Assembly: GCF_006345805.1 (NCBI RefSeq)
Contig: NC_043001.1
Coordinates: forward strand, 40,920,001 to 40,984,000
Reading direction: 5' to 3'
DNA: 64,000 bases
From: Octopus sinensis
Taxonomy: Eukaryota
The position numbers were made by a program, and so were the translations under genes. Below are positions 2,509 to 52,040 of this stretch, piece after piece. The number at the start of each line of letters is the position of its first letter. Position 1 is the first letter of the stretch. The notes beneath the pieces are model-generated. The model had not been told where the DNA came from. It did not search any database and saw only the letters and a list, made by a program, of their open reading frames with translations.

Positions 2509-4553
2509 AAAGGTAAAGGTGACACTTTAGATACAAATAATTACAGAGGTATCAAGTTGTTGAATTAGGTAATGAAGGCCATGGAGAGGATCATAGCCCA
2601 AATAATTAGGTAGAGAGTCAGTGTAGATGAGGTGCAGTTTGGTTTCGTGCCAGGGAAAAGCACCACTGAAGCTATATTTCTGGTAAGATAGCTGCAGGAG
2701 AAATACCTACCCAAAGACAAACCTCTGTACCTAGCTTTCATTGACGCAGAGAAAGCCTTTGACAGGGTCCCCCGATCCCTTATCTGGTGGTCAGTGAGAA
2801 AACTAGGGATAGATGAATAGTTAGTGAGAGCTGTGCAAGCCATGTACAGGGATGCCGTCAGTAAGATGAGGGTTGGCAACGAGTACAGTGAAGAATTCCA
2901 GGTAGAGGTAGGGGTCCACCAAGGTTCAGTCCACAGCCCCCTCCTATTTATCATAGTCCTTCAGGCAATAACAGAGGAATTCAAAACAGGATGCCCCTGG
3001 AAGCTCCTCTATGCGGATGACCTTGCTCTAATTGCTGAATCACTATCAGAACTAGAGGAGAAGTTTCGGGTGTGGAAACAAGGATTAGAATCAAAGGTCC
3101 TTAGAGTCAACTTGGCTAAAACCAAAGTCCTAATAAGTAGGAAGGCAGGCAAATCACAAATCCCTTCAGGTAGATGGCCCTGCTCGATCTGTAGAAAAGG
3201 CATAGATAGAAACTCTATAAGATGTACCCAGTGTAAGCTATGGACACATAAGAGGTGCAGCAATATCAAAGGAAGGCTAACTGGGAAGATAGTTTTTGTA
3301 TGTGGCAGATGCTCAGGAGCAATAAACACTGAAAATGTGCAGAGAACAACTTCTGCCACATTCCAAGGAGAAAAACTAGAAGTAGTTGATAGCTTCTGTT
3401 ACCTAGGTGACCAAGTCAGTAGTGGAGGTGGGGGCTCTGAAAGAATAAGAATAGCTTGGGCAAAGTTCAGAGAGCTCTTACCTCTGCTAGTGAAAAAGGG
3501 CCTCTCACTCAGATTAAAAGGTAGACTATATGACGCATGTGTACAAACAGCCATGCTACATGGCGGTGAAACATGGACCATGACTGATGAGGACATGTGT
3601 AAGCTCGCAGGGAACGAAGCCAGTATGCTCCACTGGATGAGTAATGCCAGTGTGCATACACGACAGAGTATAAATGCCTTGAGAGAAAAGTTGGACCTAA
3701 GAAGCATCAGATGTGGTGTGCAAGAGAGACGACTGCGCTGGTACGGTCATGTGGTGAGAATGAATGAGGATAGCTGTGTGTAAAAGTGTCACACCCTAGC
3801 AGTTGAGGAAACCTGTGGAAGAATTAGATCCAGAAAGACCTGGGATGATGTGGTGAAGCATGACCTTTGAGCCTTAGGCTTCACAGAGGCAATGACAAGT
3901 GACCAAGACCTTTGGAAATATGCTGTGCTTGAGAAGACCCAGCAAGTCGAGTGAGACCATTACCTGTGGCCTATGCCAGTAGTGTAACCAGCCCACTTAT
4001 GCGTACCTTTCCTACATTGGACACAAAACTCTACTTGTGAAGATCTGTTGAGGCAAGTGAAATAAAAATTGAAATCGAAATCAAATTCAATGACAACACT
4101 GCATGACTGGCATCCATGCCAGTAGAGCACTATGAGCACCATCTGAGCGTGATCGTTGCTAGGGCCGCTGACTGGCTCCCATGCCAATGATGTGTAAAAC
4201 ACACCATTCATGCATGATCATAACCAGCACCGCCTTACTGGCACGTAAAAAACAACATTTGAGCGAGGTCATTGCCAATGCCGTTGGAATGCCTCCTGTG
4301 CAGGTCACATGTAAAAACACCATTTGAGCATGGCTGTTGCCAGTACCACTGACTGGCCCTCATGCCAGTGGCACGTAAAAGCGCCCACTACACTCTCAGA
4401 GTGGTTGGTGTTAGGAAGGGCATCCAGCTGTAGAACCTCTGCTACATTAGATTAGAGACTGGTGCAGCCATCCGGCTTGCCACTCCTCAGTCAAACCATC
4501 CAACTCATGCCAGTATGGAAAGTGGACATTAAACGATGATGATGATGATGATG
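2509..4553 (+). mobile_element. 5'-truncated RTE-clade LINE: RT pseudogene 2509-~3954, 3' UTR, (GAT)n tail
   Basis: KGKGD..NYRGIKLL, QFGFVPGKSTT, FIDAEKAFDRVPR, GVHQGS..SPLLF, LLYADD, FCYLG and RRLRWYGHV motifs, interrupted by in-frame stops. Ends in ttaaacgatgatgat. Flanked by TA-rich microsatellite. Confidence 0.95.
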
Positions 4554-4652
4554 ATATATATATATCTCAATGTGTATATATATATATATTATATATCAAT
4601 GTATATATAAACATATATATCAATATATATATAACATATATATATATATATG

Positions 4653-4870
4653 TGAAGGTGCGTGGCTTAGTGGTTAGGGCATTTGGTTCATGATTGTAAG
4701 GTCGTGAATTCAATTCCCAGGGACACGTGTCCTTGAACAAAACACTTAATTTCACGTTGCTCCAGTCCACTCAGCTGGCTGTGGAGTGCTCAGCCACTTA
4801 ATTTCACGAGCAAGCTGTTATGCTGATCATATCAGCTGGGACCCTCGTCGTCGTAACTGACGGAGTGTGC
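4653..4870 (+). mobile_element. tRNA-derived SINE
   Basis: A box tggcttagtgg and B-box-like aattcaattcc, followed by gtgtccttgaacaaaacactt..ttgctccagtccactcagctg, a core shared with 8727. Confidence 0.75.
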
Positions 4871-4920
<50 letters not shown>

Positions 4921-5239
4921 GGTGGTGCCCCGCATGGCCGTGGCCTTCGGGATAAAACATTTTTAAGGATTTAAGGATATAATATATATATATATATCAA
5001 TGTATGTATATATTATATATATCAATGATATGTATATATATATATATAATCAATTTATATATATATATATCAATTTAATATATATATATCAATCTATTAT
5101 ATATATATCAATCTATATATATATACATATCAATCTATATATATACATATCAATCTATATATATACATATCAATGTATATATATATATCAATGTGTATAT
5201 ATATATATATATATGTGTATATATATATATATATTTTTT

Positions 5240-5460
5240 TTGTACTTGTTTCAGTCATTTCGACTGCGGCCATGCTGGAGCACCGCCTTTTAGAGTGGTG
5301 AAAGAGTACAGCAGGGATCACCACCATCCCCTGCCGGAGCCTCGTGGAGCTTTTAGGTGTTTTCGCTCAATAAACACATACAACGCCCGGTCTGGGAATC
5401 GAAACCGCGATCCTCCGACCGCAAGTCCGCTGCCCTAACCACTGGGCCATTGCGCCTCCA
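5240..5460 (-). mobile_element. tRNA-derived SINE (ggaggcgcaatggcccagtgg head) with CR1-type tail
   Basis: Head shared with 39413 and 61023. Tail ggcggtgctccagcatggccgcagtc..gactgaaacaag resembles the CR1 3' end at ~46605. Confidence 0.85.
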
Positions 5461-5524
5461 TATATATATATGATTGATTGATTGATTCCAGTTTCAGCTC
5501 ATGAGCTGTGGCATGCTGGGGCAT

Positions 5525-5734
5525 ATTATATATATATATATATATATATACTACATTGATATACATATATATATACATTATATATATATATATATATAAT
5601 ATACTACATTGACATACATATATATATATACATATATATTATATATATATGTATATATATATATATATATATACTACATTGATATATAATATATATATAT
5701 TATACAACATTGATAATACTATATATATACATAT

Positions 5735-5766
<32 letters not shown>

Positions 5767-6172
5767 CATTGATATACATATTATATAATATAATATATAT
5801 ATATACATTAATATATATATACTACATTGATATACATATATATATACATATAATATATATATATATATAATATTATATATATATATATATATATATACTA
5901 CATTGATATACAATATATATACATATATATATATACTACATTGATATACATATATATACATATATATATATACTACATTGATATACATATATATACTACA
6001 TTGATATACATATATACATATTATATATATATATACTACATTGATATACATATATATACAATATATATATATTACTACATTGATATACATATATATCTAT
6101 ATATATATATATATACTACATTGATATACATATATATACATATATATATATATATATACTACATTGATATAC

Positions 6173-6209
<37 letters not shown>

Positions 6210-9039: not shown

Positions 9040-9246
9040 AGTTACATGGTGACCTTACAAGTGCTCGTGACATGAAAAAATACCCAGTACACACTCTAAA
9101 GCAGTTGGCATTGGGAAGGGCATTCAGCTGTAGGTACCATGCCAGAGAAAACACTGGAGCATAAAGTAGTCCTTGGACCCATCAGATCCTGTCAAACCAT
9201 CCAACCCATTCCAGCATGAAACAGGCATTAAATGACGATGATGATA
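9040..9246 (+). mobile_element. RTE-type 3' tail fragment
   Basis: ttggcattgggaagggcattcagctgtag...ccatccaacccattccagcatgaaa...ttaaatgacgatgatgat. Confidence 0.7.
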
Positions 9247-9308
9247 AACAATGGTGTCTTTTATCTTTTACTTTTTTATCTTCTCCCTCCATATTTTTAA
9301 GAGGTTGT

Positions 9309-9396
9309 GGGCCAACAGGTTTTGGGATCTGACGATACGCCATAAAGCTAAGCCCTTTATGGACGGGAAACCTAAGGTAATTCCATAAACCGGCCT
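9309..9396 (+). ncRNA. Type I hammerhead ribozyme motif with extended, bulged stem I
   Basis: GGGAU-CUGACGA (9329-35), stem II CCAUAAAG/CUUUAUGG, GAAA (9367-70), stem III ACC-UAA-GGU, cleavage triplet GUA (9377-79), then AUUCC. Stem I continues GGUUUU/AUAAACC and GGGCC/GGCCU around an AACA bulge. Confidence 0.75.
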
Positions 9397-9402
9397 TCCC
9401 CA

Positions 9403-9447
<45 letters not shown>

Positions 9448-12212: not shown

Positions 12213-12234
12213 TATGTGTTTGTTAAAATGGGGA

Positions 12235-12322
12235 AGGCCGGTTTATGGGATTATCTTAGGTTTCCGTCCATAAAGGATTTGGCTTTATGTCATATCATCA
12301 GATCCCAAAAACCTGTTGACCC
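12235..12322 (-). ncRNA. Second copy of the type I hammerhead motif (stem III damaged)
   Basis: Reverse complement: GGGAU-CUGAUGA-uaugaCAUAAAG ccaaauc CUUUAUG gacg-GAAA-CCUAAGAU-A-AUCCC. Homologous to 9309-9396. Confidence 0.65.
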
Positions 12323-12399
12323 ATGACCAGTCCTGAAAACTCTTCACAGCCTTGGCTTTGTTATCTCATTTTGTCTCATATAAATAGAAATATTCGTTT

Positions 12400-16384: not shown

Positions 16385-17565
16385 ACTGATACCTTACTGA
16401 CAGCATCCCTGTACAGGGCTTGTACAGCTCCTACCAACCACTTGTCTATCCCTAGTTTCCGCATTGACCACCAGATAAGGGATCAGGGGACTTTGTCAAA
16501 GGCTTTCTCCAAGTCAACAAAAGCCAAGTACAGAGGTTTATCTTTGGCTAGATATTTCTCTGCAGTTGCCTTACCAGAAATATAGCATCAGTGGTGCTTC
16601 TCCCTGGCACAAAACCAAACTGCATCTCATCTAGGCTAACTCTCTCCCTAATTAGTTGGGCTATGATCCTCTCTGTAACTTTCATCACCTGATCCAATAA
16701 TTCAATACTCCTGTAGTTATTTCTATCTAATGCATCACCTTTACCTTTGTAGCAGCTGACTATGGTGCTGCTACACCAGTCATTGTATATGACTCTTTTG
16801 TGAACTACTTGATTTACAATGTGGGTGACAAGACCATAAACCACACTACCCGATATTTCAAGCATCTCAGCAGTGATTCCTGATGGGCCAGGGGCTTTCT
16901 CTGTCTTCATATCCTTAATTGTTTTATCTACCAGGGTACTGTCAATTTGGGTAGCTGGTCCCTCAATTGGGTCAACATTTGGCAGACCCTCCTCCTCCCA
17001 TTCATTCGCCACATTCAGCAGTCTTTCATAATGGTATCTCCAAGCCTCTTTCTTCGCAGAATCACTAAATGCAAGGGCACCATCATCCATGCAGGCACAT
17101 TTTTCTCCACTGTTTTGCAATCCAAAATACTTCAGTTCTTTGATCCTCACATCTCTGAACAATGGCAAACTTCTTTTCTGCTACTCCCTTGGCTATATAT
17201 ACCTATTTCTTTATTACCCACAAGGGGCTAAACATAGAGGAGACAAACATGGACTGACATAGGTATTAAGTCGATTATATCGCCCCAGTGCGTAACTGGT
17301 ACTTAATTTATCGACCCCCGAAAGGATGAAAGGCAAAGTCAACCTCGGCGGAATTTGAACTCACAACGTAACGCAGACGAAATACCACTAAGCATTTCGC
17401 CCGGCGTGCTAACATTTCTGCCAGCTCGCCGCCTTGGCTACATATACCTGTCTCCTAGCTTCCCTTCTGGTTAACTGATACAGTCCCCTGCTACCCCCAC
17501 TCTACTAGGCCTTCCAGGCCTGTGTCTTTGCCCTAATGGCCCTGTCTACAGCATTGTTCAACCAC
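16385..17565 (-). mobile_element. RTE LINE internal fragment, interrupted by a SINE
   Basis: ORF 16548-17168: KAPGPSGITAEML, YKGKGDALDRNNYRSI, QFGFVPGRSTTDAIF. Confidence 0.92.
17205..17433 (-). mobile_element. Full-length Nin/Deu-like SINE with target-site duplication
   Basis: Homologous to 14727. Flanked by ccttggctatatatacct (17187-17204) and ccttggctacatatacct (17432-17449). Confidence 0.9.
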
Positions 17566-23385: not shown

Positions 23386-23592
23386 ATATATCATGCTTTC
23401 CTGGTCATTTTTTCCTTCTCCAGACCTTTCCTTTCTCTTTCTGAAGAGCTACGCTTGAAATGTAAAAAAAAAAAAACCACTCTTTTTTACACTTTCACTG
23501 AGTGTCATGCTAATATATTCCATGTGTACATCCTTTTGTTGTTTTGTTATTGGTTATATTTAATGTTAAATTTGACTATATATATATAGCTA

Positions 23593-34989: not shown

Positions 34990-35730
34990 ACCTTTGACAA
35001 AATAGAAGGGGATATAGCTTCGTACAATGTGGAAAACAACTGGAGGTTTCTACAAAACAACCAGCTGAGGGCCATTGACCAGATCTGTGGATGGTGCAAA
35101 GTCCCCTCTCGACCCAAAATAACGTGGTGGTGGAACAATGTTGTTGCCAGGGCTATTAGAGAAAAGAAACATGCTTGGAAGGACTGGAAGAACGGTGGTT
35201 GCAGGGAATTGTATCAGATTGCCAGAAGGGAAGGAAGGAGACCGGTTTATTTAGCTAAAGGGGAAGCAGATAAGAAAAAATTTGCCAATGTTCTGCGCCG
35301 TGAGGACCAAAGACTTAAGGTATTTCGTGTTGCAAGACAATGTGTGAGAGAGAATTGTGATGTCGTAGGAAAGAAATGTGTCCACATGGATGATGGCTGA
35401 CTTGCACTAAACGAGGCTGCAAAGAGAGAGGTTTGGAGACACCACTATGAAGGTTGCTCAATAAAGAGAATGAATGAGAGAAAGAGAGTCTGCCGAATGC
35501 TGGCCCAACAGAGGGACCAGCTATCCAAATTGACAGTACCTTGGTAGAAAAAGCAATTAAGAGTATGAAGACAAGAAAAGCCCCCAGCCCATCAGGAATC
35601 ACCACAGAGATGCTCAAAATATCTGGCAGTGTCAGCTATAGCCTAGTCACCCGTATAGTTAACCAGATGATACACGAAGGAGTCATACCCAATGACTGGT
35701 GTAGCAACATAATAGTCAACTGCTACAAAG
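34990..35730 (+). mobile_element. RTE LINE internal fragment
   Basis: TWWWNNVVARAIREKK, KAPSPSGITTEML, IPNDWC; ends abruptly in (GAT)n. Confidence 0.9.
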
Positions 35731-37320: not shown

Positions 37321-38897
37321 AGGAAAGAAATGTGTCCACATGGATGATGGCTGACTTGCACTAAACGAGGCTGCAAAGATAGAGGTTTGGAGACACCACT
37401 ATGAAAGGTTGCTTAATAAAGAGAATGAATGAGAGAAAGAGAGTCTGCCGAATGCTGACCCAACAGAGGGACCAGCTATCCGAATTGACAGTACCTTGGT
37501 AGATAAAGCAATTAAGAGTATGAAGACAGGAAAAGCACCCAGCCCATCAGAAATTACCACAGAGATGCTTAAAATAACTAGTGATGTCAGCTATAGTCTA
37601 GTCACCCGTATAGTCAATCAGGTGAGACATGAAGGAGTCATACCCAATGACTGGTGTAACAGCACCATAATCAGCTGCTATGGTAAAGGTAAAGGTGATG
37701 CATTAGATATGAATAATTATAGAGGTATCACGTTGCTGGATCAGGTAAAGGTAATGAAAGTCACTGAGAGGGTCCTAGCCCAACTAATTAGGGAGAGAGT
37801 CAGTATAGACAAGATGCAGTTTGGATTTGCACCAGGCAGAAGCATCACTGAAGCTATATTTCTGGTAAGACAGCTGCAAGAGAATTACCTAGCCAAAGAT
37901 AAACCTTTGTACCTGGTTTTTGTTGACATGGAAAAAGCCATTGACAGAGTCCCCCAATCACTTATCTGGAGGTCAATGCGGAAACTAGGGATAGATGAGT
38001 AGTTAATGACGTCTGTACAAGCCCTATAAAGGGATGCTGTCAGTAAGGTGAGGGTTGGCAACAATTATAGTGAAGAATTCCGGGTAGGGGTAAGGGTCCA
38101 CCAAAGATCAGTCCTCAGCCCCCTCTTATTCATCATAGTCCTCCAGGCAATAACAGAGGAATTCAAGACAGGATGCCCTTGAGAGCTTCTCTATGCTGAT
38201 GACCTTGCTCTAATAGCTGAATCACTACCAGAACTAGAGGAGAAGTTTCAGGTGTGGAAGCAAGGGCCAAAGTCTTAATAAGTAGGAAAGCAGACAAATT
38301 ACAAATCCCTTCAGGTAGGTGGCCCTGATCGATCTGTAGAAAAGGTGTAGGTAGAAACTCCATAAGATGTACCTGGTGTAAGCTATGGACACATCAGAAG
38401 TGCAGCAATATCAAAGGAAGGTTAAATGGGAAGATAGTTTTTGTGTGTGGCAAATGCTCAGGGGCAATAAACACTGAAAATGTGCAGAAAAAAGCCTCTG
38501 TCACATGCCAGGGGGGAAAACTAAAAGTAGTTGATAGCTTCCGTTACCTAGGTGATTAAGTCAGTAGCAGGGGTGGATACTCTGAGAGTGTAGCTGCTAG
38601 AATAAGAATAGTCTGGGCAAAGTTCAGAGAGCTCCTACCTCTGCTGGTGACAAAGGACCTCTCGCTCAATTTAAAAGGTAGACTGTATGACGCATGTGTG
38701 CAAACAGCCATGCTACGCAGCAGGGAAACAAAGGCCATGACTGCTGAGGACATGTGTAAGCTTGCAAGGAATGAAGCCAGTGTGCTCTGCTGGGTGTGTA
38801 ATGTCAGTGTGCATACATGACAGAGTGTAAGTGCCCTGAGAGAAAAGTTGGACTTCAGAAGCATCAGATGTAGTGTGCAAGAGAGATGACTGCACTT
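37321..38897 (+). mobile_element. RTE LINE RT pseudogene fragment
   Basis: NNYRGITLL, QFGFAPGRS, FVDMEKAIDRVP, LYADD, PHD remnant and FRYLG, with several stops. Confidence 0.93.
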
Positions 38898-43987: not shown

Positions 43988-44135
43988 ATGCCTGTGAGGT
44001 AAGAAGCCAGCTTCCCAACCACATGGTTCTGGGTTCAGTCTCACTGCATGGCACCTATGGCAAATGTTTTCTACTATAGCCTCAGGCTGACCAAAGCTTG
44101 GTTTGTAGATAGAAACTAAAAGAAGCCCATCATAT
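43988..44135 (+). mobile_element. OK-like SINE 5' part
   Basis: cttcccaaccacatggttctgggttcagtctcactgcatggcacc. Confidence 0.75.
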
Positions 44136-44154
44136 ATATATATATATACACACA

Positions 44155-44200
<46 letters not shown>

Positions 44201-44204
<4 letters not shown>

Positions 44205-46666
44205 TGGATCTCTGCTTCACAAATAATATGGATCTCATCCATAATGTGAAAGTGACGCCGACACTACTCTCGGATCACAACATGGTAGAGCTGACTATGT
44301 ACGGGCCAAAGGAAAGCATGGACATGCAGCCTACAAGAAACTCTCAGAATCTTTCCCGCTTGAACTTCCATAAGACAAACTGGAAACAAATTGAGAAAGA
44401 GATCCTCAAACAAAACTGGCCTGAATGTCTATCCTCGCCAGACATCGACATGAAACTTCAACAATTCATGTCTGTAATGCAAGCCATATGCTACAAGTAT
44501 GTCCCAGAGAGAAAGGCCACTGCACACAAGAGCAAAATCCCCAGAGAGAGGAAAATTCTAATGAGACAGCATACAAAAGTTTCAAATCGCCTAAACAAAC
44601 AAATTGAAAGCAGTGAAAAGTTCCGCCTGAAAATAAAACTGTTGGAAATTGAAAAATGTCTGCAACTCTCCCATGAAAAAGAAAGAGCAGACAAAGAAGC
44701 CTGGGCTATAGACAACATAAAATCTAACCCCAGAACTTTCTACAGGTATGCCAAAGAAACAGCTACGGTGCACTGTAGGATAGGGCCACTCCTTGAAAAG
44801 GATGGCACACTCACAGGAAATCCAATGAGGGTAAGTGAAATACTAAATGAGCAATTCAAGATTATTTTCACTCCACCCCTAGGGCATTTTCAAGTCAGCA
44901 ATCCAACTGACTTCTTTACCACTGCAGATATAAAATCAGAGGCATCGATGATTGATTACATCAATATAAAGGAAGACGATGTAATAAAGGCTATTGATGA
45001 AATGAAAACAAACTCAGCTACTGGCCCCGATGGATTCTCAGCAATCCTTCTAAAAGTATGTAAGAGAGTCCTAGCAAGACCACTGCAGTTCCTCTTTCAG
45101 AGCTTCCTTGCAACTGGCAAACTTCCAAGAAAACTGAAGGAAGGTAAAATATGCCCTATTCATAAAGGAGGTAGCAGAGCGGAGGCCAAGAACTACAGAC
45201 CTATCTCTCTGACCTCACACATCAGCAAGGTCATGGAACGAATAGTCAGAAGGAAACTAATCACCTTCCTTGAAGAAAATGACTTGCTGCCTGACACCCA
45301 ACATGGTTTCCGACCAGGAAGAAGCTGCTTAACTCAGCTCCTACCACACTATGACTGGGTGCTGAAACGACTGCTCAACCACTCAAATGTGGAAGTCATA
45401 TATCTCAACTTTGCAAAGGCCTTTGATAAAGTCGATCATGGAATGATATGTCACAAATTGCGTGATCTTGGCATAGTTGGAAAATTGGGAGAATGGCTTC
45501 ATGACTTTCTGAAGGATAGAAGTCAGGTGGTAGTAGCCAATGGGGCCACTTCCATTAACACGCAAATAGTGAGCGGTGTTCCGCAAGGCACTGTTTTGGG
45601 ACCACTACTGTTCATAATGGCCCTCTCAGACATGCCCTCAGCCACGCAGAGAGCCACGATCACAAGTTATGCAGATGATACAAAAGTTTCACAGGCAATA
45701 CAGAACCCTGAAGACACTAAGCACATGCAATGTGAGCTGGACAAAATATACAAGTGGGCTGAAAAGAATAGCATGCAGTTCAATGCTGAAAAGTTTCAAG
45801 CTTTATACTATCAGCATGCAAAACTAAATGCAATACCCAATAAATACACTGGACCTGGAAGGATTGCAATCCCAGAGGCACAATCAGTGCGAGACCTGGG
45901 TATTTACATGAGTGATGATGCAACCTTTCATGTGCATGTTGCTAAATTGGCAATGAAATGTAGGCGGCTGACCGGATGGATTCTTAGAACCTTTAGAACA
46001 AGAGACCAGGAAACCATGATGGTCCTCTGGAGGACATTTGTCCTAAGCCACTTTGACTATTGCTCTCAGCTATGGTCACCATCCAGTGTCAAGTTAATCA
46101 CAGAACTTGAGGCGATCCAACAAAGCTACACGAAGAAGATAACCTCTGTGCAGCATATAAGCTATTGGGAAAGACTCAAGAGATTGAGACTCTATTCCTT
46201 AAAGCATAGGCAAGAAAGATATGCCATAATATACATCTGGAAGATCCTAGAAGGACTTGTCCCAAACTTTGGCATCGAGAGTTACACAAATGCCAGAACT
46301 GGGCGCCACTGCATAGTGCCAAGGACTCCAAATTTGCCATCAAGATGTAGGACAAGATACTGTGATAGCCTGGGCTTCTGAGGTCCACAGCTCTTCAATA
46401 TCCTCCCGAAGAACCTAAGAGACCTGCATGGGGTGGATGCAGATGTCTTTAAAATGAAACTGGATTTCTTCTTGTCAGGTGTTCCAGATGAACCAACTTC
46501 ACGGCAGGAGGTGCAGATGAGGGCAGCTGCATCGAACTCTCTCATGCACCAGATGGCAATTGCTAAAAAGCATTTGTGAAGTAAAATCATGTAGCAACAC
46601 CAAATGGCGGTGCCCCAGCATGGCCACAGCTTGTGAGCTGAAACTAAATAAATAAATAAAAATAAA
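44201..46666 (+). mobile_element. 5'-truncated CR1-like LINE (end of APE domain + RT), ORF 44228-46381
   Basis: LDLCFTNN and SDH endonuclease end; ATGPDG, NYRPISLTS, QHGFRPGRSC, SGVPQGTVLGPLLF, YADD, RDLG. Premature TGA at 46379, with the reading frame continuing to 46579. (TAAA)n tail. Confidence 0.95.
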
Positions 46667-51139: not shown

Positions 51140-52040
51140 ATAGCTCAACAAATATTACATGGTATAATGCTCCATTTTCATTTTCAATAGCTTCTAATAT
51201 CCCTCATAAATTCTTTGCAGCACTAGATTGGTATTTCCTACCTACAAGTAAATATGGAAAATCATTTAAAAGACACAGTGTTAAGTTTTTGTATTCAATC
51301 ACTTAGAAATTTAGCCAAGATTATTGCAGTACAAAATAAACAGAGAATTAGAAAATAGCACAATTCTAAATCTATAAATAATTATAGAACTGATAATATG
51401 TATAGTGAAATTAATGTTATTGATAATCATTCGGAACAAGGTTTAGATTCTATAATTTATCAAAATGCTGATAATATAGTGAGACTTTTACCTTGTACTA
51501 ATATTAATTCTAATAATAATAGTTATTATAATCCAACATTAACACCTATTTTACAGATGGGTGCTAGTGGATATTCTTATAACTATGAGGGCAATTTACA
51601 AGTGGACTTAATCCATGTGTAACTGTATAAACAAAACTTAATGTCCTTTAGGTAATCAGTATTTAAAGAAAAATATATTGTATCAGTCTGAAGTAATAAC
51701 TAGATATCTTAAGTATTGGTACATTGATTCTTCTGCTACTAATTGGAAATCTAGATTTTATAATCATTCTAATTGCTTTAAATATAGAAGAAAATGTAAT
51801 TCTACTAACCATAGTAAAAACATTTGGAATTTAAAGGATAAGAATATTAAATATGATTTAAAGTGGTCCTTTATTACTTATGCACCATCGTATAATATTG
51901 GAAATTCTACTTGTGATCTTTGCCTTGAAGAATTATATTTTATAATTACTTATAAATCAATTTTATTGAATTTTAATGGGCAATTAACTTTAAGACATTG
52001 CCATAAATTTAGAAAGACATTCAAATATTTCAATTATTAA
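51140..52040 (+). mobile_element. Penelope-like element C-terminus (linker + GIY-YIG endonuclease), decayed
   Basis: ITWYNAPFS..NIPHKFF..YFLP (like WFNPPFS..HFP); YQ..V..WYID..WKSRFYNH..F..ST..SK.IW.LKD..CDLCLEE. Confidence 0.88.

Follow-up and report, generated by a model that had tools for sequence, protein, structure and literature searches.

Results

The window analysed here is a stretch of 64,000 nucleotides of the Octopus sinensis genome. The layout of a type I hammerhead can be read directly in its sequence at 9309-9396 of the forward strand (Table 1; residues follow the standard hammerhead numbering). C3 U4 G5 A6 N7 G8 A9, G12 A13 A14, the A15.1-U16.1 pair and H17 are all found there, and three covarying stems surround a core that is open at stem I, which is the arrangement of the type I class. 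The list of core bases is that given in PMC3088659. Judged by sequence and covariation, 9309-9396 would be a type I hammerhead with a predicted cleavage after GUA. The preliminary description had named it so, and the invariance of the core together with the covariation bears this out; its account of core, stems, bulge and triplet stands, but its "short dispersed repeat" does not hold as a stand-alone unit. Stem I has 15-16 bp in total, with its AACA bulge at 9314-9317. The catalytic core is canonical and the only non-canonical point is the pair 10.1-11.1 (U-G). In the window copy the base of stem II is made up of U9336 and A9337 facing G9366. This had been written as "UA...G" and taken as a variant core; it is indeed non-canonical, but it reads as a probable U10.1-G11.1 pair with a bulged A, and precedents for such a closing occur in the available part of File S2 of PMC8557442.

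Table 1. Features of the hammerhead, its insertion and the second copy in the window.
Position	Strand	Feature	Remarks
9309..9328	+	Stem I, 5' strand	GGGCC / AACA bulge / GGUUU / U / GGGAU; pair probabilities 0.4-1.0
9329..9335	+	Catalytic core C3-A9, CUGACGA, N7 = C	Same in 8/8 subfamily consensuses except N7 (C, U, A)
9336..9366	+	Stem II	U10.1-G11.1, bulged A9337, 2 bp, bulged A9363, 8 bp, 7-nt loop II at 9348-9354
9367..9369	+	Core G12-A13-A14	Identical in 8/8 subfamilies
9370..9378	+	Stem III, palindrome ACCU-A-AGGU	3 bp (ACC/GGU) as monomer; 8 bp and A.A mismatch as dimer
9379..9379	+	H17, A of GUA; predicted cut 3' of A9379	Position from the hammerhead consensus
9380..9396	+	Stem I, 3' strand	A1.6-U1.7 at 9385-9386 identical across all 8 subfamilies
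9286..9411	+	5'-truncated, tail-less 3' end (3' UTR/pLTR), assigned to a Hydra-clade PLE, family A, subfamily S8	Similarity to long copy L029
9410..9560	.	(TA)n/(CA)n microsatellite, likely insertion target	Sequence; 57/73 S8 copies end in a (TA)n run
12225..12328	-	Second 5'-truncated S8 copy, stems II and III damaged	Convergent orientation; likely separate insertion

The minimum free energy structure of 9309-9396 as a monomer includes all three stems. In the predicted monomer ensemble the U10.1-G11.1 pair has a probability of about 0 and stem III of about 0.3, and the predicted fold is not more stable than shuffled sequences (z = -0.56, with 58 of 200 shuffles equally stable). Rfam scans, a check that had been suggested with the hammerhead models, gave no hammerhead among the 8 matches at E<=10 for 9200-9410, none among 150 of the 200 rows listed for the window and none at gathering score for four loci of other subfamilies. 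The missing Rfam match is a matter of model coverage and not a biological criterion. The motif is judged not to be a product of chance because of its genomic family, its invariant core and its covarying stems, and not because of fold stability or Rfam.

The parent element

A search of the 2.72-Gb genome with a 121-nt query gave 1917 first-look candidates, 40 of which were scored, and a 24-nt degenerate pattern had 187 exact matches as compared to 0 for the control. The genome-wide search that had been proposed therefore does reveal a large dispersed family, here called family A. Its copies have a common 3' end and a variable 5' truncation and often lie head-to-head: 29 head-to-head pairs (28 in one subfamily) were counted among the fetched loci as against 4 same-strand pairs. 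A tail of about 60 nt is present in 35 of the 73 copies of S8, the subfamily of the window copies. Long copies encode a reverse transcriptase (RT) thumb, a CxCX5C linker and a GIY-YIG endonuclease, which ends 100-210 nt upstream of the motif. When loci were selected by the endonuclease alone, the motif lay downstream in sense at 67 of 80; these 80 were taken from the top scores of 150 listed matches and spread by hand. The 3' UTR motif that directly precedes the hammerhead is likewise missing from 12 of the 13 loci without it. It should be noted that 60 of the 220 loci-type sets were chosen by motif similarity and are hence biased. A full-length but broken copy, L079, has an estimated length of about 2.9-3.0 kb, carries RWK, DKT and YRDD, shows part of a further copy in inverted orientation at the 5' end and is without a direct 5' pLTR. 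The single ORF with RT and C-terminal GIY-YIG is broken but complete in L079 and L082.

Among the Hydra-clade marks given in the accessible literature, family A has RWK, DKT, the CxCX5C linker, and CxxC and CxH around the E/N residues. The anatomy of the clade is also found, namely (TA)n insertion, 5' truncation, an inverted 5' copy, an optional tail and a hammerhead ribozyme (HHR) near the 3' end. Another locus of the same genome, L085, is nearly identical to the HHR row of Hydra-1_oBim in the available part of PMC8557442. The family A RT is 59-61% identical to L085 and 50-55% to a young intact family, B; these are pairwise identities to in-genome relatives, and the clade was assigned by protein marks and anatomy. 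By these two lines the host of the motif appears to be the 3' end of an autonomous Hydra-clade Penelope-like element (PLE), which sharpens the earlier notion of a PLE-derived family. The companion notion of a retrozyme-like repeat is not supported because the motif is linked to an RT-endonuclease ORF and the copies are arranged head-to-head and not in tandem. A Pfam search of two ORF fragments gave 0 families at E<=1, and a repeat search of the 64-kb window was dominated by microsatellites. Four of the 24 runs listed, two of which were guessed to be RNA, have contigs with related copies; as contigs give no ends, strand or level, they speak neither for nor against expression. No paper on family A was found in the octopus literature on hammerheads, Penelope and Hydra elements, though Repbase, Dfam, supplements and subscription papers may hold it. 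Family A seems to be a separate family, a new member of the already known Hydra-clade kind of PLE.

In family A the predicted endonuclease would also carry a low-complexity insert, rich in Asn, Ser and Thr, that separates GIY from YIG. The distance from Cys to YIG is about 39 aa in family B, 47 in L085 and 106-285 in 16 copies of family A, with about 190-285 aa in S8.

Subfamilies and covariation

Motif matches were reduced from 252 to 202 by removing duplicates and those with fewer than 70 model columns, and to 200 by removing two gapped rows. The 200 copies sort into 8 subfamilies. The labels track a tree of endonuclease DNA (83 rows with enough sequence, only two of them S1), requiring 10 changes where the minimum is 8 and the shuffled mean 53.8. 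The order of the tree is S1 (basal), S4, S6, S3, S8 and then S11/S10/S9, on a root placed at family B over a long branch and with a bootstrap not fully settled.

In the subfamily consensuses none of the 11 core columns varies, as compared to 59 of the 94 other columns (Fisher p=5e-5). Both N7 (C, U or A) and H17 (A in seven subfamilies, C in the basal one, which has GUC) vary within the allowed set. The five proximal pairs of stem I covary (GGGAU/AUCCC, GGGGU/ACCCC, AGAGU/ACUCU, AGGGU/ACCCU), with A-U/G-C swaps at three positions, and stem I pairing is retained in 8/8 subfamilies with duplex energies of -15.8 to -23.9 kcal/mol. The pair 10.1-11.1 reads G-C (S1, together with GUC), A-U, U-U, U-U, U-G, U-G, U-A and U-A, and is followed by one bulged base in every subfamily. 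Read along this series, the U10.1-G11.1 closing with its bulged A is probably a real pair derived from a canonical G-C ancestor. In 28 raw copies, which are hand-picked rows, 45 cells are double-changed, when shuffling gives 20.6 and the slid controls 2-13; two of the five measures (pairs with a double change, and pair types) were not above shuffles. The bulge of stem I varies (AACA, AGCA, CUCG-like), loop II has 3 to 7 nt, and the two have no mutual complementarity, which speaks against the contact between AACA bulge and loop II that had been assumed. The bulged A of stem II was considered as a universally conserved residue and rejected, being base-paired in the basal subfamily S1.

Selection on source elements and decay of inserted copies

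Compared with their consensus, copies carry 79 core changes as against 118.5 in base-matched controls. Head-to-head mates, which would derive from one insertion event, show 30 differences at non-CpG core positions where 31.3 are expected, in a test of modest power. The deficit against the consensus is read as an effect of unresolved source lineages and ascertainment because it is gone in this paired test. Preferential conservation of the core, which the preliminary description had made a condition of its reading, is thus present across subfamilies and absent between paired copies. The neutrality of the paired copies indicates that selection acted on active source elements during retrotransposition and that inserted copies decayed neutrally afterwards. 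As 215 of 220 copies extend at least 7 nt beyond the cut site and only two end at it, insertions were mostly copied from uncut RNA. The two, L160 and L132, end exactly at the predicted cut site and run into (TA)n and (GT)n, one each; they may have been copied from RNA that was cut, or their ends may reflect microhomology to the target that arose by chance.

The two copies in the window

The insertion in the window aligns with positions 1497-1627 of the long copy L029 at 91.6% and has no match further upstream; its right end is blurred by the (TA)n run. The hammerhead copy within it has 4 differences from the S8 consensus, all of them ordinary changes. It has neither its own promoter nor its own ORF, and around 9309-9396 no host exon could be recognised. 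The core is intact in 38 of 73 S8 copies, so an intact window copy is unremarkable; its intact core can be put down to the chance of a young-ish age, and the copy is likely without function.

The second copy is 89% identical to the first over 100 nt and differs from the S8 consensus at 10 positions. Its existence had been described correctly but the list of its differences was incomplete: G16.2->A, which breaks stem III and turns the cleavage triplet into AUA, the deletion of a G at the boundary of stem II and core, and a C->A change that disrupts one stem II pair had been left out. The differences between the two copies had been taken as a sign of selection on the structure; as inserted copies decay neutrally, they represent decay. 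The contrast of C7 and U7 at the N7 position arises because CpG sites change about twice as fast (U7 is present in 22/73 S8 copies, and other CpG cytosines are changed in 17-24%), and the contrast of G-U and G-C in stem I is a C->T change within the first copy itself.

Discussion

Our data establish the family membership and anatomy of the hammerhead, the invariance of its core, the covariation of its stems and its neutral decay after insertion. How it was cut is suggested by stem III. On its own this stem does not fold (0 kcal/mol), and two copies of it form a duplex of 8 bp with -8.2 to -11.6 kcal/mol, -8.2 being the value for the window copy. The innermost pair of stem III cannot close round the 1-nt loop of a monomer, yet it is Watson-Crick in 8/8 subfamilies (A-U, C-G or U-A) and has undergone at least 3 double changes along the endonuclease tree, which points to cleavage as a dimer, although some of this covariation could also have been produced by lineages recombining or by template switches within short palindromes. 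The hammerhead was probably cut as an RNA dimer and not as a fast single ribozyme. A palindromic stem III with dimer cleavage is a described PLE pattern in the available parts of PMC4209133 and PMC6765202, and by analogy the family A hammerhead would be comparable to these dimer-type PLE hammerheads.

It is likely, in our view, that the motif is a decayed 3'-end HHR of a Hydra-clade PLE, left by a 126-nt truncated insertion into (TA)n, that underwent dimer cleavage, likely with the aid of a protein, while the element was active. Two palindromic stems III would pair between RNA molecules to give an active dimer, in which the element RNA would be cut after GUA as long as source elements were active. 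The element's own protein could be assisting this cleavage; in the portion of PMC11167929 at hand, cleavage by the anole PLE HHR depended on the protein of the element, and insertion was templated by uncut RNA. Such a cleavage could be of use in the processing of multi-unit or read-through transcripts. Several observations weigh against this reading. There are few direct tandem copies from which dimers in cis would arise (the 4 same-strand pairs), the full-length L079 has no direct 5' pLTR, Rfam gives no hammerhead match, insertions come mostly from uncut RNA, and the comparison with the consensus shows fewer core changes than expected.

It could also be that the HHR of the same element works efficiently as a monomer, its long stems I and II docking by a tertiary contact that stabilises the 3-bp stem III. 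The partners in this contact would be the AACA bulge and loop II, or else the unpaired U1.7 and one A in stem II. All 8 subfamilies keep a long, paired stem I, when minimal PLE HHRs have a stem I of only 4-5 bp (available text of PMC4209133). The bases A1.6-U1.7 do not vary, and elsewhere, according to the accessible part of PMC9217987, a U located 7 nt beyond the cut pairs with an A of the stem II loop. Long stem I and invariant A1.6-U1.7 may thus be compatible with a tertiary contact, and the predicted minimum free energy structure agrees with a monomer in holding all three stems. We nevertheless consider an efficient monomer unlikely: bulge and loop II vary without complementarity, the bulged A of stem II is base-paired in the basal subfamily, the probability of stem III is low at about 0.3, and the covariation of a pair that forms only in the dimer is left unexplained.

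A further and quite doubtful suggestion is that the hammerhead acts as a concentration-dependent brake, in which two RNAs pair by stem III and remove the 3' end where the RT starts, with relics acting in trans. The truncated relics, which number in the hundreds to thousands, would then, provided that they are transcribed, be dimer partners that cut the RNA of active elements. The octopus Hydra elements seem to be without tandem pLTRs. Were there such a brake, the loss of G10.1-C11.1 and the U4C of family B would be escapes from it.

The fold might instead have been kept as an RNA structure that binds protein or positions the RT, cleavage being negligible or incidental, which we hold to be very improbable. 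The derivation of insertions from uncut RNA is in line with it, as are the drift of pair 10.1-11.1 away from G-C and the amplification of the young sister family B with U4C, a change reported to lower activity (PMC3088659). The available part of PMC11167929 also describes HHR mutants of the anole PLE that had no effect on insertion in vitro, and RNA-seq without ends at the site. Against this, exactly the 11 catalytic bases are invariant and N7 and H17 vary as allowed, which is the pattern expected of catalysis.

That the motif belongs to a non-autonomous retrozyme or SINE-like repeat, or to a copy domesticated by the host, is scarcely credible and already largely refuted: the window copies are short and dispersed and retrozymes have been proposed to come from PLE pLTRs (bioRxiv 10.64898/2026.07.22.740005, in its accessible part), but a fixed 5' end and the tandem monomers of 170-400 nt that define retrozymes in the available text of PMC7229834 are absent, homology is continuous into the ORF, and decay is neutral, with the first copy only 4 ordinary changes from its consensus.

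Hydra-clade PLEs are known to carry HHRs and one octopus case is published, as far as the available part of Craig et al. 2021 (PMC8557442) extends. With Hydra-1_Obim, as described there, family A shares RWK, DKT, CxCX5C, a C-terminal GIY-YIG, (TA)n targets and a length of ~3 kb, and with Hydra-clade HHRs a type I motif near the 3' end and a 4-bp palindromic stem III with a 1-nt loop. The stem III of S1, ACCA-U-UGGU, resembles ACCA-A-UGGU in the Hydra-1_oBim row, and the stem II base of S1 is likewise similar. Family A differs from Hydra-1_Obim, within the same portion of the source, in its longer stems I and II and in a GIY-YIG split by the Asn/Ser/Thr-rich insert, and its sequence is absent from the searched rows of File S2. 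Those rows hold Hydra-clade HHRs with U10.1-U11.1 or other non-G-C closings and palindromes with 1-nt loops.

The minimal PLE hammerheads of Cervera and de la Pena 2014 (PMC4209133, available part) likewise have the type I layout, a pLTR, a palindromic stem III, the dimer model, a long stem II bulged near its base and close copies on opposite strands. Family A departs from them in possessing a true stem III and as many as 15-16 bp in stem I; its bulge follows 10.1 where theirs lies between 9 and 10.1, and G10.1-C11.1 is lost in 7/8 subfamilies. Hammerheads of Schistosoma Sm-alpha and of non-LTR retrozymes (PMC7229834, in the text available) share with family A the type I layout, the canonical core, a bulged stem I and a short palindromic stem III. 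In contrast to these, the helices I and II are not 6 and 4 bp, the element bears an ORF and there is no tandem non-coding monomer. The fast Sm-alpha-like architecture proposed earlier does not fit, as the stems are far longer (helix II 10-12 bp against ~4 bp and helix I 15-16 against ~6 bp, canonical values from the accessible part of PMC4209133) and the palindrome in stem III suggests that a dimer is needed; no contact of loops 1 and 2 of the Sm-alpha kind was recognisable in the subfamily consensuses of family A. The U10.1-U11.1 core variants of Perreault et al. 2011 (PMC3088659) share a non-G-C closing of stem II, U-U being found in two subfamilies; unlike them, the position in family A runs through G-C, A-U, U-U, U-G and U-A in one lineage.

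The identity of the motif is in itself ordinary. Its value lies in a natural series by which dimer dependence and the loss of G10.1-C11.1 become testable. Eight successive subfamilies in one genome suggest that the bases specific for catalysis and a pair formed only in the dimer were held by selection during retrotransposition. They also provide matched natural variants (G-C to U-G at 10.1-11.1, and GUC to GUA) for monomer, dimer and protein-assisted assays. The purpose of such a motif is a wider question, since the role of PLE hammerheads is called unclear in the available text of PMC8557442 and the cleavage of the anole PLE HHR was dispensable in vitro (PMC11167929, part available).

Other hammerheads and retroelements

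Family B is a young Hydra-clade family with intact ORFs of ~717 aa. Its type I hammerhead is distinct from that of family A, in that the core reads CCGAAGA (U4C) and GAA is preceded by one additional U. In L071 its hammerhead lies at 2191-2104 (-) and its ORF at 4538-2388 (-); further loci are L066, L070, L072, L073 and L084. A family B pattern had 2156 exact matches, mostly C4 among the 100 listed. In family B the core is able to pair with a CUUCGG of stem II, and the fold predicted for the motif is not the hammerhead. A search of the literature on the hammerhead U4C change found only PMC3088659. In L066 a hammerhead-like motif with a palindromic ACGU-ACGU stem III is present at 1965-1922 (-), immediately upstream of and opposite to a family B ORF.

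The window contains a minimal hammerhead at 39334-39307 (-), with a 4-bp stem I, CUGAUGA, a short stem II and GAA-ACGU-U, in a further dispersed repeat that ends in (TA)n. It has 32 exact genomic matches and is likely the end of a different PLE family; a decayed relative may be present at 23441-23470 (+). An AT-rich decayed Hydra-like RT-thumb/GIY-YIG ORF at 51154-52037 (+) is 32-36% identical to family B, and no hammerhead was seen by eye downstream of it. At 4270-6201 (+) of L082, a third Hydra-like RT is inserted just downstream of a family A copy; it is more distant, with 33-39% identity to the others. The window also holds LINE-type ORFs, RT/endonuclease-like by eye and presumably RTE-like, at 2821-3780 (+), 37433-37999 (+), 16551-17180 (-), 34990-35397 (+) and 44120-46378 (+), the last of which has 753 codons.
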